This document shows, piece by piece, positions 12,201-18,200 of a stretch of 64,000 nt of DNA. The DNA is from Escherichia coli (GTDB taxonomy: Bacteria > Pseudomonadota > Gammaproteobacteria > Enterobacterales > Enterobacteriaceae). Location of the stretch: the NCBI RefSeq assembly GCF_001677475.2, contig NZ_CP015229.1. The stretch is one strand, 5' to 3'. The first letter of the stretch is position 1, and each line of letters begins with the position of its first letter. A program made the position numbers.

Positions 12201-15200
12201 AACTCTGGTTGGTCAGCCGGCTAAACGTCAGGCAGTGACGAACCCGCAAAACACCCTGTTTGCGATTAAACGCCTGATTGGCCGCCGCTTCCAGGACGAA
12301 GAAGTACAGCGTGATGTTTCCATCATGCCGTTCAAAATTATTGCTGCTGATAACGGCGACGCATGGGTCGAAGTTAAAGGCCAGAAAATGGCACCGCCGC
12401 AGATTTCTGCTGAAGTGCTGAAAAAAATGAAGAAAACCGCTGAAGATTACCTGGGTGAACCGGTAACTGAAGCTGTTATCACCGTACCGGCATACTTTAA
12501 CGATGCTCAGCGTCAGGCAACCAAAGACGCAGGCCGTATCGCTGGTCTGGAAGTAAAACGTATCATCAACGAACCGACCGCAGCTGCGCTGGCTTACGGT
12601 CTGGACAAAGGTACTGGCAACCGTACTATCGCGGTTTATGACCTGGGTGGTGGTACTTTCGATATTTCTATTATCGAAATCGACGAAGTTGACGGCGAAA
12701 AAACCTTCGAAGTTCTGGCAACCAACGGTGATACCCACCTGGGTGGTGAAGACTTCGACAGCCGTCTGATCAACTATCTGGTTGAAGAATTCAAGAAAGA
12801 TCAGGGCATTGACCTGCGCAACGATCCGCTGGCAATGCAGCGCCTGAAAGAAGCGGCAGAAAAAGCGAAAATCGAGCTGTCTTCCGCTCAGCAGACCGAC
12901 GTTAACCTGCCATACATCACTGCAGACGCGACCGGTCCGAAACACATGAACATCAAAGTGACTCGTGCGAAACTGGAAAGCCTGGTTGAAGATCTGGTAA
13001 ACCGTTCCATTGAGCCGCTGAAAGTTGCACTGCAGGACGCTGGCCTGTCCGTATCTGATATCGACGACGTTATCCTCGTTGGTGGTCAGACTCGTATGCC
13101 AATGGTTCAGAAGAAAGTTGCTGAGTTCTTTGGTAAAGAGCCGCGTAAAGACGTTAACCCGGACGAAGCTGTAGCAATCGGTGCTGCTGTTCAGGGTGGT
13201 GTTCTGACTGGTGACGTAAAAGACGTACTGCTGCTGGACGTTACCCCGCTGTCTCTGGGTATCGAAACCATGGGCGGTGTGATGACGACGCTGATCGCGA
13301 AAAACACCACTATCCCGACCAAGCACAGCCAGGTGTTCTCTACCGCTGAAGACAACCAGTCTGCGGTAACCATCCATGTGCTGCAGGGTGAACGTAAACG
13401 TGCGGCTGATAACAAATCTCTGGGTCAGTTCAACCTGGATGGTATCAACCCGGCACCTCGCGGCATGCCGCAGATCGAAGTTACCTTCGATATCGATGCT
13501 GACGGTATCCTGCACGTTTCCGCGAAAGATAAAAACAGCGGTAAGGAGCAGAAGATCACCATCAAGGCTTCTTCTGGTCTGAACGAAGATGAAATCCAGA
13601 AAATGGTACGCGACGCAGAAGCTAACGCCGAAGCTGACCGTAAGTTTGAAGAGCTGGTACAGACTCGCAACCAGGGCGACCATCTGCTGCACAGCACCCG
13701 TAAGCAGGTTGAAGAAGCAGGCGACAAACTGCCGGCTGACGACAAAACTGCTATCGAGTCTGCGCTGACTGCACTGGAAACCGCTCTGAAAGGTGAAGAC
13801 AAAGCCGCTATCGAAGCGAAAATGCAGGAACTGGCACAGGTTTCCCAGAAACTGATGGAAATCGCCCAGCAGCAACATGCCCAGCAGCAGACTGCCGGTG
13901 CTGATGCTTCTGCAAACAACGCGAAAGATGACGATGTTGTCGACGCTGAATTTGAAGAAGTCAAAGACAAAAAATAATCGCCCTATAAACGGGTAATTAT
14001 ACTGACACGGGCGAAGGGGAATTTCCTCTCCGCCCGTGCATTCATCTAGGGGCAATTTAAAAAAGATGGCTAAGCAAGATTATTACGAGATTTTAGGCGT
14101 TTCCAAAACAGCGGAAGAGCGTGAAATCAAAAAGGCCTACAAACGCCTGGCCATGAAATACCACCCGGACCGTAACCAGGGTGACAAAGAGGCCGAGGCG
14201 AAATTTAAAGAGATCAAGGAAGCTTATGAAGTTCTGACCGACTCGCAAAAACGTGCGGCATACGATCAGTATGGTCATGCTGCGTTTGAGCAAGGTGGCA
14301 TGGGCGGCGGCGGTTTTGGCGGCGGCGCAGACTTCAGCGATATTTTTGGTGACGTTTTCGGCGATATTTTTGGCGGCGGACGTGGTCGTCAACGTGCGGC
14401 GCGCGGTGCTGATTTACGCTATAACATGGAGCTCACCCTCGAAGAAGCTGTACGTGGCGTGACCAAAGAGATCCGCATTCCGACTCTGGAAGAGTGTGAC
14501 GTTTGCCACGGTAGCGGTGCAAAACCAGGTACACAGCCGCAGACCTGTCCGACCTGTCATGGTTCTGGTCAGGTGCAGATGCGCCAGGGTTTCTTTGCCG
14601 TGCAACAGACCTGTCCACACTGTCAGGGCCGCGGTACGCTGATCAAAGATCCGTGCAACAAATGTCATGGTCATGGTCGTGTTGAGCGCAGCAAAACGCT
14701 GTCCGTTAAAATCCCGGCAGGGGTGGACACTGGAGACCGCATCCGTCTTGCGGGCGAAGGTGAAGCGGGTGAACACGGCGCACCGGCAGGCGATCTGTAC
14801 GTTCAGGTTCAGGTTAAACAGCACCCGATTTTCGAGCGTGAAGGCAACAACCTGTATTGCGAAGTCCCGATCAACTTCGCTATGGCGGCGCTGGGTGGTG
14901 AAATCGAAGTACCGACCCTTGATGGTCGCGTTAAACTGAAAGTGCCTGGCGAAACCCAGACCGGTAAGCTGTTCCGTATGCGCGGTAAAGGCGTCAAGTC
15001 TGTCCGCGGTGGCGCACAGGGTGATTTGCTGTGCCGCGTTGTCGTCGAAACACCGGTAGGCCTGAACGAGAAGCAGAAACAGCTGCTGCAAGAGCTGCAG
15101 GAAAGCTTCGGTGGCCCAACCGGCGAGCACAACAGCCCGCGCTCAAAGAGCTTCTTTGATGGTGTGAAGAAGTTTTTCGACGACCTGACTCGCTAACCTC

Positions 15201-18200
15201 CCCAAAAGCCTGCTCGTGGGCAGGCCTGGGTAAAAATAGGGTGCGTTGAAGATATGCGAGCACCAATAAAGTGGCGGGGAGCACTCCCCGCCGTTGCTCT
15301 TACTCGGATTCGTAAGCCGTGAAAACAGCAACCTCCGTCTGGCCAGTTCGGATGTGAACCTCACAGAGGTCTTTTCTCGTTACCAGCGCCGCCACTACGG
15401 CGGTGATACAGATGACGATCAGGGCGACAATCATCGCCTTATGCTGCTTCATTGCTCTCTTCTCCTTGACCTTACGGTCAGTAAGAGGCACTCTACATGT
15501 GTTCTGCATATAGGGGGCCTCGGGTTGATAGTAAAAATATCACTCGGGGCTTTTCTCTATCTGCCGTTCAGCTAATGCCTGAGACAGACAGCCTCAAGCA
15601 CCCGCCGCTATTATATCGCTCTCTTTAACCCATTCTGTTTTATCGATTCTAATCCGGAAGACGCCTCGCATTTTTATGGCGTAATTTTTTAATGATTTAA
15701 TTATTTAACTTTAATTTATCTCTTCATCGCAATTATTGACGACAAGCTGGATTATTTTTGAAATATTGGCCTAACAAACATTGCCGACTGACAACAAATT
15801 AATTATTACTTTTCCTAATTAATCCCTCATAAATCCTCACCTTAAGCTATGATTATCAGGGCTTAGGGTTAGGGTCACACGTCAGCGCTTACAGCCGTCA
15901 AAAACTCATCTCATCGCTGATGGCGCAAACTCATCAATGGTTCGTAAAAAACGAATTATTCCTACACTATAATCTGATTTTAACGATGATTCGTGCGGGG
16001 TAAAATAGTAAAAACGATCTATTCACCTGAAAGAGAAATAAAAAGTGAAACATCTGCATCGATTCTTTAGCAGTGATGCCTCGGGAGGCATTATTCTTAT
16101 CATTGTCGCTATCCTGGCGATGATTATGGCCAACAGCGGCGCAACCAGTGGATGGTATCACGACTTTCTGGAGACGCCGGTTCAGCTCAGGGTTGGTTCA
16201 CTCGAAATCAACAAAAACATGCTGTTATGGATAAATGACGCGCTGATGGCGGTATTTTTCCTGTTAGTCGGTCTGGAAGTTAAACGTGAACTGATGCAAG
16301 GATCGCTAGCCAGCTTACGCCAGGCCGCATTTCCAGTTATCGCCGCTATTGGTGGGATGATTGTGCCGGCATTACTCTATCTAGCCTTTAACTATGCCGA
16401 TCCGATTACCCGCGAAGGGTGGGCGATCCCGGCGGCTACTGACATTGCCTTTGCACTTGGTGTGCTGGCGCTATTGGGAAGTCGTGTTCCGTTAGCGCTG
16501 AAGATCTTTTTGATGGCTCTGGCTATTATCGACGATCTTGGGGCCATCATTATCATCGCATTGTTCTACACTAATGACTTATCGATGGCCTCTCTTGGCG
16601 TCGCGGCTGTAGCAATTGCGGTACTCGCGGTATTGAATCTGTGTGGTGTACGCCGCACGGGCGTCTATATTCTGGTTGGCGTGGTGTTGTGGACTGCGGT
16701 GTTGAAATCGGGGGTTCACGCAACCCTGGCGGGGGTAATTGTCGGCTTCTTTATTCCTTTGAAAGAGAAGCATGGGCGTTCTCCAGCGAAGCGACTGGAG
16801 CATGTGTTGCACCCGTGGGTGGCGTATCTGATTTTACCGCTGTTTGCATTTGCTAATGCTGGCGTTTCACTGCAAGGCGTCACGCTGGATGGCTTGACCT
16901 CCATTCTGCCATTGGGGATCATCGCTGGCTTGCTGATTGGCAAACCGCTGGGGATTAGTCTGTTCTGCTGGTTGGCGCTGCGTTTGAAACTGGCGCATCT
17001 GCCTGAGGGAACGACTTATCAGCAAATTATGGCGGTGGGGATCCTGTGCGGTATCGGTTTTACTATGTCTATCTTTATTGCCAGCCTGGCCTTTGGTAGC
17101 GTAGATCCAGAACTGATTAACTGGGCGAAACTCGGTATCTTGGTCGGTTCTATCTCTTCGGCGGTAATTGGATACAGCTGGTTACGCGTTCGTTTGCGTC
17201 CATCAGTTTGACAGGACGGTTTACCGGGGAGCCATAAACGGCTCCCTTTTCATTGTTATCAGGGAGAGAAATGAGCATGTCTCATATCAATTACAACCAC
17301 TTGTATTACTTCTGGCATGTCTATAAAGAAGGTTCCGTGGTTGGCGCAGCGGAGGCGCTTTATTTAACACCACAAACCATTACCGGACAGATTCGGGCGC
17401 TGGAAGAGCGCCTGCAAGGAAAATTATTTAAGCGCAAGGGACGTGGCCTCGAGCCCAGCGAGCTGGGAGAGCTGGTCTATCGCTATGCCGATAAAATGTT
17501 CACCTTAAGCCAGGAAATGCTGGATATCGTGAACTATCGCAAAGAATCCAATTTATTGTTTGACGTTGGCGTGGCTGATGCACTTTCTAAACGCCTGGTC
17601 AGTAGCGTACTTAACGCCGCAGTGGTAGAAGGCGAGCCGATTCATCTTCGCTGCTTCGAATCCACCCACGAAATGCTGCTGGAGCAATTAAGTCAGCATA
17701 AACTGGATATGATCATTTCCGACTGTCCGATAGATTCTACGCAGCAGGAAGGTCTGTTCTCCGTGAGAATTGGCGAATGTGGCGTGAGTTTCTGGTGTAC
17801 AAATCCACCACCGGAAAAACCGTTCCCGGCTTGTCTGGAAGAACGGCGGCTTTTGATTCCTGGGCGACGTTCAATGTTAGGGCGCAAATTGCTTAACTGG
17901 TTTAACTCCCAGGGATTAAACGTAGAAATCCTCGGCGAGTTTGATGATGCCGCGTTGATGAAAGCTTTTGGTGCGATGCACAATGCAATCTTCGTTGCCC
18001 CAACGCTTTATGCATATGACTTTTATGCCGATAAAACTGTCGTAGAAATTGGTCGCGTCGAAAATGTGATGGAAGAGTACCATGCTATTTTTGCTGAGCG
18101 GATGATTCAGCACCCGGCGGTACAGCGAATCTGCAATACGGATTATTCTGCGCTTTTTAGCCCAGCGGCACGTTAATCGGCAGCTCCCCCAAAGTTAAGG

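Follow-up and report, generated by a model that had tools for sequence, protein, structure and literature searches.

A stretch of 64,000 nt of Escherichia coli DNA (contig NZ_CP015229.1 of assembly GCF_001677475.2, here called the window) carries between dnaJ and nhaA what is very probably an uninterrupted, ancestral version of the chromosomal hokC(gef)/mokC/sokC type I toxin-antitoxin locus, with a hok-type RNA switch proposed by analogy with plasmid R1. The spacer between the two genes occupies exactly 15197-16044 (848 bp) in the list of open reading frames (ORFs), with dnaJ ending at 15196 and nhaA starting with GTG at 16045. No insertion sequence (IS) is present in it: the spacer of strain K-12, once IS186A is removed (845 bp), aligns with it end to end and colinearly. 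All parts of the hok-type switch are present in the window and are predicted to pair as in R1. An IS-free hokC/mokC/sokC locus is already known, canonical and ordinary, and nothing in the locus itself is new.

The hokC and mokC genes are intact

The original prediction described intact hokC and mokC frames in an uninterrupted spacer, and both frames were recovered complete, sharing a stop codon. The HokC protein, nested in mokC, reads MKQHKAMIVALIVICITAVVAALVTRKDLCEVHIRTGQTEVAVFTAYESE and matched Pfam family PF01848 (HOK_GEF) with 85.5 bits (cut-off 22, E value 1.8e-24); its score with the NCBIfam Hok subfamily model was below the curated cut-off (46.8 vs 73). The gene is convergent with dnaJ, and the gene order dnaK (12061-13977), dnaJ, nhaA, nhaR is that of K-12.

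The region upstream from hokC matched the Rfam model RF01794 ("sok") on the minus strand of 15450-15603. The match covered the full model (1-157) with 117.8 bits (gathering score 59, E value 9e-28) and spans 154 nt, up to the hokC AUG, showing that the conserved structured leader is present. In thousands of RefSeq genomes the locus bears a mokC annotation. The coordinates of all features are collected in Table 1.

Table 1. Features of the dnaJ-nhaA spacer and of the predicted hokC and sokC transcripts (window positions)
Feature	Position	Strand	Basis
dnaJ-nhaA intergenic spacer	15197..16044		ORF list; colinear alignment with K-12 spacer minus IS186A; no insertion element
hokC toxin ORF, 50 aa	15300..15452	-	Pfam HOK_GEF, 85.5 bits; DNA identical to K-12 hokC
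mokC overlapping frame, 69 aa	15300..15509	-	Stop in common with hokC; K-12 mokC annotation; L2Q relative to K-12
Full-length hokC mRNA, putative, ~400 nt	15205..15603	-	5' end: R1 hok homology and start of Rfam model match (15603); 3' end: hairpin and U4
hokC promoter -10 TATAAT, putative	15610..15615	-	Read from sequence; 6 nt upstream of the putative +1; -35 weak
tac, nt 1-12, GGGUGCUUGAGG	15592..15603	-	Partner of fbi in full-length fold, of ucb in truncated fold; conserved in 17 homologues
Metastable 5' hairpin of nascent transcript, nt 2-30 (predicted)	15574..15602	-	Folds of 30-52-nt prefixes
ucb / anti-Shine-Dalgarno, nt 52-59, AAAGCCCC	15545..15552	-	Predicted pairing with SDmok (full-length) or tac (truncated)
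mokC Shine-Dalgarno (SDmok) GAGG, nt 83-86	15518..15521	-	8 nt before mokC AUG; invariant in 17-sequence alignment
Predicted SokC-target loop CAGAACA, nt 98-104	15500..15506	-	Truncated-mRNA fold
dcb CCUC, nt 116-119	15485..15488	-	Predicted SDmok partner after 3' trimming
3' "road-block" hairpin GGCGGGGA-GUGC-UCCCCGCC, nt 312-331	15273..15292	-	Terminator-like scan call; folds; compensatory changes
fbi fold-back element, nt 353-365, CUUCAACGCACCC	15239..15251	-	tac pairing probability at least 0.94; U-A to C-G covariation
Distal hairpin GCCUGCC-CACG-AGCAGGC and UUUU, nt 378-399, putative terminator	15205..15226	-	Fold; 9 nt after dnaJ stop
UACG at hokC Tyr47 codon, TadA adenosine-to-inosine motif (Tyr to Cys)	15311..15314	-	Sequence
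sokC antisense RNA gene, ~60 nt	15501..15560	+	Coordinates transferred from K-12 non-coding RNA annotation
sokC promoter TTGACC, 17-nt spacer, CACTCT	15466..15494	+	Identical to K-12; aligned with R1-like TTGCGC/TATCCT

Predicted folding of the hokC transcript

The hokC mRNA was numbered from 15603, nt n corresponding to window position 15604-n, and its elements were defined after the R1 hok mRNA as described in PMC9841398 and PMC1635323. In this numbering the mokC AUG is nt 95-97 (15507-15509), the hokC AUG nt 152-154 (15450-15452) and the hokC stop codon nt 302-304 (15300-15302). The road-block hairpin lies 8-27 nt downstream from the stop codon, and fbi, the predicted partner of tac, at +48.

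Folding was performed in silico, and the results are thermodynamic predictions. The 401-nt RNA had a minimum free energy of -161.9 kcal/mol (z score -6.0), a stability reached by none of 100 shuffled sequences. In the corresponding structure nt 1-12 were paired with nt 353-365 and ucb lay on SDmok; pair probabilities in the full-length RNA were 0.94-1.0 for tac/fbi and 0.97-0.99 for ucb/SDmok. When the RNA was cut just past the 3' hairpin (truncations at 15256-15268), tac was paired with ucb (0.96-0.99) and SDmok with dcb (0.92-0.98). Prefixes of 30-52 nt formed a 5' hairpin that hides tac, of the same type as in R1-like hok.

A K-12 transcript reading through into IS186 was also modelled, its length of 644 nt being taken from PMC3562002. 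In this RNA tac was paired with ucb with a probability of about 0.84, and the fold-back was absent. The predicted folds match the published four-state hok pathway and display the part that is missing in K-12. The suggestion in the original prediction that fold-back control may be kept gains support from the sequence, from these models and from the comparison with homologues described below.

The transcript ends, the 3' processing, the expression of SokC and any killing are matters that we infer from R1. On that model, a weak promoter (-10 TATAAT, 15610-15615) would direct the synthesis of an mRNA of about 400 nt, from 15603 to about 15205 on the minus strand, whose 5' end would be kept in the metastable hairpin while the transcript is nascent. 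In the finished RNA tac, at the 5' end, would lie on fbi, at the 3' end, and ucb would cover the mokC ribosome-binding site, so that the RNA would be stable, untranslated and closed to antisense binding. Slow exonucleolytic trimming from the 3' end would halt at the GGCGGGGA/UCCCCGCC hairpin, with loss of fbi; tac would then move to ucb, and the mokC start region would refold as a hairpin with dcb. The refolded start region would be open to ribosomes, and translation of mokC would be coupled to that of hokC. An alternative fate of the refolded mRNA would be binding of the SokC antisense RNA of about 60 nt, followed by cleavage of the duplex.

The helices of the switch are conserved among homologues

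A scan for HokC in one genome per species yielded 24 loci (Escherichia, Pseudocitrobacter, Kluyvera, Citrobacter, Photorhabdus and others), and Rfam searches of 20 of these located 23 hok leaders. When the window and a plasmid copy were included, the stretch that forms the best duplex with the first 13 nt (tac) lay 45-54 nt past the stop codon in 23 of the 25 copies. Two Photorhabdus copies had no fbi in the usual place; one belongs to a locus, L020, that ends too soon after the gene, the other is L025, and the two were not counted as contrary evidence.

Seventeen sequences were aligned, among them the copy from an IncFII plasmid that encodes an R1-type Hok; its protein is, presumably, the R1 Hok sequence itself. 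Over the 17 sequences the tac/fbi, ucb/SDmok and 3'-hairpin helices were 93.6% paired, versus 44-49% when the partners were slid by 1-3 columns, and double-sided changes were present at six pairs. At position 4 of tac the tac/fbi pair changes from U-A to C-G in four sequences, and one ucb/SDmok pair changes from A-U to G-C in 8 of the 17. The road-block hairpin is likewise conserved with compensatory changes, and a GC hairpin followed by a T-run occurs at the same relative place as the distal hairpin in most of the aligned homologues. Because the aligned sequences share ancestry and the tested structure came from the window itself, the shuffle control makes the result look more significant than it is; more weight attaches to the slid control and to the constant location of fbi.

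Two of the loci found by the scan deserve mention in their own right. Photorhabdus thracensis (locus L015, 100-2135) carries four hok leader/hok copies in tandem over some 2 kb, and in every one of them tac and fbi (GGGCGCUUGAGA / UCUCAAGCGCCC) are fully complementary; the array exemplifies the hok "islets" of a 2025 preprint. A 275-bp contig labelled Acinetobacter idrijaensis contained a HokC fragment 83% identical in sequence; hok is unexpected in this genus, and the contig is probably an enterobacterial contaminant of that assembly.

The IS186 site is unoccupied, as in most E. coli genomes

The presence of an IS186 copy just past hokC in K-12, which the original prediction had mentioned, was confirmed: IS186A (15387-16731 of the K-12 record, 1345 bp) is located between dnaJ and hokC, 19 nt past the hokC stop codon. 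At the IS186 junctions of K-12 a 10-bp repeat, GGATCACTCC, is found inside a GGGG-N6-CCCC sequence. The same site in the window is the hairpin core GGGG-AGCACT-CCCC (15276-15289), which is unoccupied, the hairpin being contiguous over 15273-15292. GGGG-N6-CCCC fits the target consensus of IS186 reportedly published by saiSree et al. in 2001. Around and in hokC, 223 nt (15282-15504) are identical to K-12. That IS186 disturbs the processing of the K-12 mRNA, also part of the prediction, is stated in PMC3562002, according to which the element disrupts fbi and mRNA processing.

Complete E. coli genomes were probed with 120 nt spanning the K-12 insertion point. The site was contiguous in 3814 of 5426 genomes (~70%) and interrupted at this hairpin in about 30%. 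Most of the non-contiguous genomes in the sampled listing broke at the same base, about window position 15277. Four interrupted loci were inspected, and each carried IS186/IS421 at the hairpin: in two natural isolates, from pig and chicken, the break corresponded to the IS186/IS421 transposase in the K-12 orientation, while AR_0137 had IS186 at the same site in the opposite orientation together with IS150 in the leader. The hairpin core looks like a hot spot for IS186 that happens to be unoccupied here.

IS-free hokC beside dnaJ/tpke11 was also found in the type strain of E. albertii (L003) and in a second divergent Escherichia genome (L004). Together with the majority among E. coli, these genomes identify the uninterrupted form as the ancestral, majority state, and the K-12 arrangement, with IS186 in hokC, as a derived minority state. 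An IS-free hokC had been reported for strain ECOR24 (Pedersen & Gerdes 1999, as related in PMC3562002), and the hokC of the adherent-invasive E. coli (AIEC) strain NRG857c is listed among "intact loci lacking IS elements" (PMC7232551). The IS-free state is therefore not a distinguishing feature of the window: it is the majority and ancestral condition and has been published (PMC3562002, PMC7232551).

The window lineage is sequenced only as drafts. Draft assemblies GCA_019136195.1 and GCA_018683435.1 contain its spacer at 100% identity, and no complete RefSeq E. coli genome exceeded 98.6% identity over 10-30 kb (the 20 kb at 10000-30000). This ceiling had raised the suspicion of Shigella or of a cryptic Escherichia clade, which was abandoned in view of the identical spacers in the drafts; the lineage is at the level of E. 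coli. In GCA_018683435.1 the identity of 100% extends over 8.8 kb around the hokC spacer.

The sokC antisense gene

The sokC gene is laid out as a single-stranded 5' tail, GUUCUGCAU, a hairpin and then UUUUCU, the tail being complementary to the mok start region. Its predicted fold had a free energy of -23.3 kcal/mol (z score -4.85). The sokC promoter region is identical to that of K-12, in which sokC is an annotated non-coding RNA. This identity suggests that the Sok antisense may indeed have been retained, as had been proposed from the first reading of the sequence.

Evidence against an active locus and alternative readings

Several observations weigh against a locus that works as described above. 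A scan for consensus promoters and terminators made no call for the hokC promoter, the -35 of which is weak, or for the sokC promoter; nor did it call the distal terminator, which has only four U/T, the scan needing five T. The -10 of sokC, CACTCT (15489-15494), is poor, its leading T being missing in the hokC orthologues. In the window the predicted SokC-target loop reads CAGAACA, without the YUNR U-turn motif that is contained in the K-12 loop CUGAACA. In the toxin, Tyr47 is aligned with a Cys that is conserved in other Hoks, and editing of codon 47 by TadA occurs at a low level only, ~9% in K-12 (PMC12214031). A recent preprint (bioRxiv 10.1101/2025.08.07.668861), relating the work of Pedersen & Gerdes 1999, describes the IS-free hokC of ECOR24 as giving no post-segregational killing, and as not being activated by rifampicin. 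Two plus-strand matches from the same scan, promoter-like at 15585-15614 (inside the hokC leader) and terminator-like at 15358-15370 (inside the hokC ORF), were treated as chance.

Neither of the sokC features is peculiar to the window. Relative to TAnnCT, the sokC -10 in most other hok/sok loci, the same 1-nt deletion is found in the window, K-12, E. albertii, the second Escherichia genome (L004) and two Pseudocitrobacter paralogues (L005 and L012). The loop change is caused by T for A at 15505 (mRNA nt 99), which both replaces Leu2 of MokC by Gln and removes YUNR from the predicted loop. The CAGA allele was present in 987 of 5412 E. coli genomes (~18%, scored as an identical 75-mer around the site) as well as in the E. 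albertii type strain, and by our reading of the 17-sequence alignment YUNR is also missing in at least four other homologues. The idea that the U-to-A change is a private disabling mutation was rejected, since it is common to the 987 genomes and E. albertii. YUNR was reported to be decisive for rapid Sok binding in R1 hok (PMC6562991); the role shown for it in R1 hok is kinetic, and it does not define the family. The loss of YUNR is a frequent variant in nature, and its effect is uncertain.

It could be speculated that a locus combining an intact fold-back with the CAGA loop binds SokC more slowly than a CUGA locus and is more easily activated, the insertion of IS186 into the road-block hairpin being a recurrent way of disarming it; we consider this very unlikely. 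If true, transcription shut-off, stress or phage infection, for instance, would activate the window locus more readily than the alleles examined to date, and the IS186 insertions of other lineages would represent the recurrent disarming of an active toxin.

The alternative that fares best is that of a locus which is structurally complete and phenotypically silent, being transcribed and processed like hok with too little active HokC produced to kill or arrest the cell; an intact locus need not be a functional toxin-antitoxin system. We give this a substantial probability, somewhat short of even. It is supported by the ECOR24 results as that preprint relates them, and by the presence of Tyr47 where other Hoks have Cys, the codon being edited at only ~9% in K-12 (PMC12214031); it also agrees with the tolerance of IS186 in about 30% of E. 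coli genomes, of a further IS150 in some, and of YUNR loss in ~18%. However, the regulatory helices have all been kept, with compensatory changes across genera, which implies selection on the RNA switch, and hokC with the 223 nt around it is identical in DNA to K-12 although the surrounding 20 kb reach at most 98.6% identity with any complete E. coli genome. In addition, HokC is toxic when overexpressed (assay in bioRxiv 10.1101/2025.08.07.668861), and the ECOR loci are called "active" in PMC1635323. Secondary sources disagree on the activity of ECOR24 hokC.

The hairpins at 15205-15226 and 15273-15292 could instead be mainly terminators of the dnaK-dnaJ operon that are complementary to the hokC 5' end by accident. 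The first hairpin starts 13 nt past the dnaJ stop codon and both are symmetric with respect to strand. Yet neither is followed by a T-run on the plus strand, and the only terminator-like call there is on the minus strand. The order hairpin, fbi, hairpin with T-run likewise follows hok genes in unrelated genomic locations and on the plasmid, and fbi, placed between the two hairpins, covaries with tac. These findings make a primary role as dnaJ terminators extremely improbable. A chance ORF or a decayed remnant is refuted by the database scores and can be dismissed: nothing was found in its favour except the NCBIfam Hok models below their cut-offs (46.8 vs 73), against E values of 1.8e-24 (Pfam) and 9e-28 (Rfam), DNA identical to the annotated hokC of K-12 and the mokC annotation of thousands of RefSeq genomes.

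An uninterrupted hokC/mokC/sokC locus with a hok-type switch is hence the reading that we retain. It has little importance beyond correct annotation, the window genome representing the common intact form. It is a possible natural substrate for studying the role of chromosomal hok loci; thousands of genomes offer the same, and experiments on IS-free hokC have already been done. What is mildly new stands at the population level only: one and the same hairpin is interrupted in about 30% of complete E. coli genomes, and a common polymorphism removes YUNR from the predicted SokC-target loop.

Neighbouring features

Elsewhere in the window, Rfam matches at gathering level were obtained for the Thr operon leader (191-310), the small RNA tpke11 (13988-14065), which sits between dnaK and dnaJ, and the small RNA ES003 (33820-33872). 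The position of the Thr leader at 191 places the window at the very start of a chromosome with K-12-like numbering, of which it makes up the first 64 kb. A match to the small nucleolar RNA sR11 (22 bits vs a gathering score of 39, E value 0.24) was rejected as chance.

Upstream from nhaA (15857-15880) the window has a 6-bp insertion relative to K-12, producing a tandem TTAGGG-TTAGGG that is shared with other E. coli, WP4-S18-ESBL-07 among them; this indel in the nhaA regulatory region is probably trivial. Between nhaR and rpsT (18214-24637) lies an intact chaperone-usher fimbrial operon coding for a 319-aa putative tip protein, an 816-aa usher, a 227-aa chaperone and a 177-aa subunit, together with a 473-aa ORF annotated as espX1 in close relatives. 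At this place K-12 has only IS1A. With neither IS186A nor IS1A, the window genome is without both of the first two IS copies of K-12.

Comparison with known hok loci

The hokC (gef)/mokC/sokC locus of K-12 MG1655 (b4412/b0018/b4413) occupies the same dnaJ-nhaA site as that of the window. The hokC DNA, the sokC promoter, the leader architecture, tac, ucb, SDmok and dcb are identical in the two. Of the two, only K-12 has IS186A in the loop of the 3' hairpin, with a 10-bp target repeat, and there the element cuts hokC off from the hairpin, fbi and the terminator. Further differences of the window are T for A at 15505 (MokC L2Q, codon 2 being CAG for CTG), G for A at 15515, A for G at 15530 and an additional A in the hairpin loop of sokC.

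The natural IS-free loci of E. coli (~70% of complete RefSeq genomes) have the same uninterrupted 3' untranslated region, with hairpin, fbi and terminator, and differ from the window by point differences only, the best spacer match in a complete genome being 97.9%. The hokC of E. albertii NBRC 107761 also adjoins dnaJ/tpke11 and is IS-free, with tac, fbi and the CAGA allele identical to the window; its HokC differs by A22T, and the spacer, where it can be aligned, is 93% identical.

The hok/mok/sok (parB) locus of plasmid R1, compared through the IncFII copy, has the same gene layout and the same predicted conformational switch. The comparison with R1-type hok/sok put forward in the original prediction located tac, fbi and the Sok promoter, and the order of the elements is common to both loci: tac, metastable hairpin, ucb, SDmok, Sok-target hairpin, dcb, 3' hairpin, fbi and terminator. 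The window differs from R1 in its divergent toxin sequence and shorter leader, in tac (GGGUGC versus GGCGC in R1, with fbi compensating) and in the sokC -10 (CACTCT versus the R1-like TATCCT); unlike R1, its allele has no YUNR in the predicted target loop. Whereas the R1 locus is carried by a plasmid and brings about post-segregational killing, that of the window is chromosomal and present in a single copy, and for hokC such killing is disputed.

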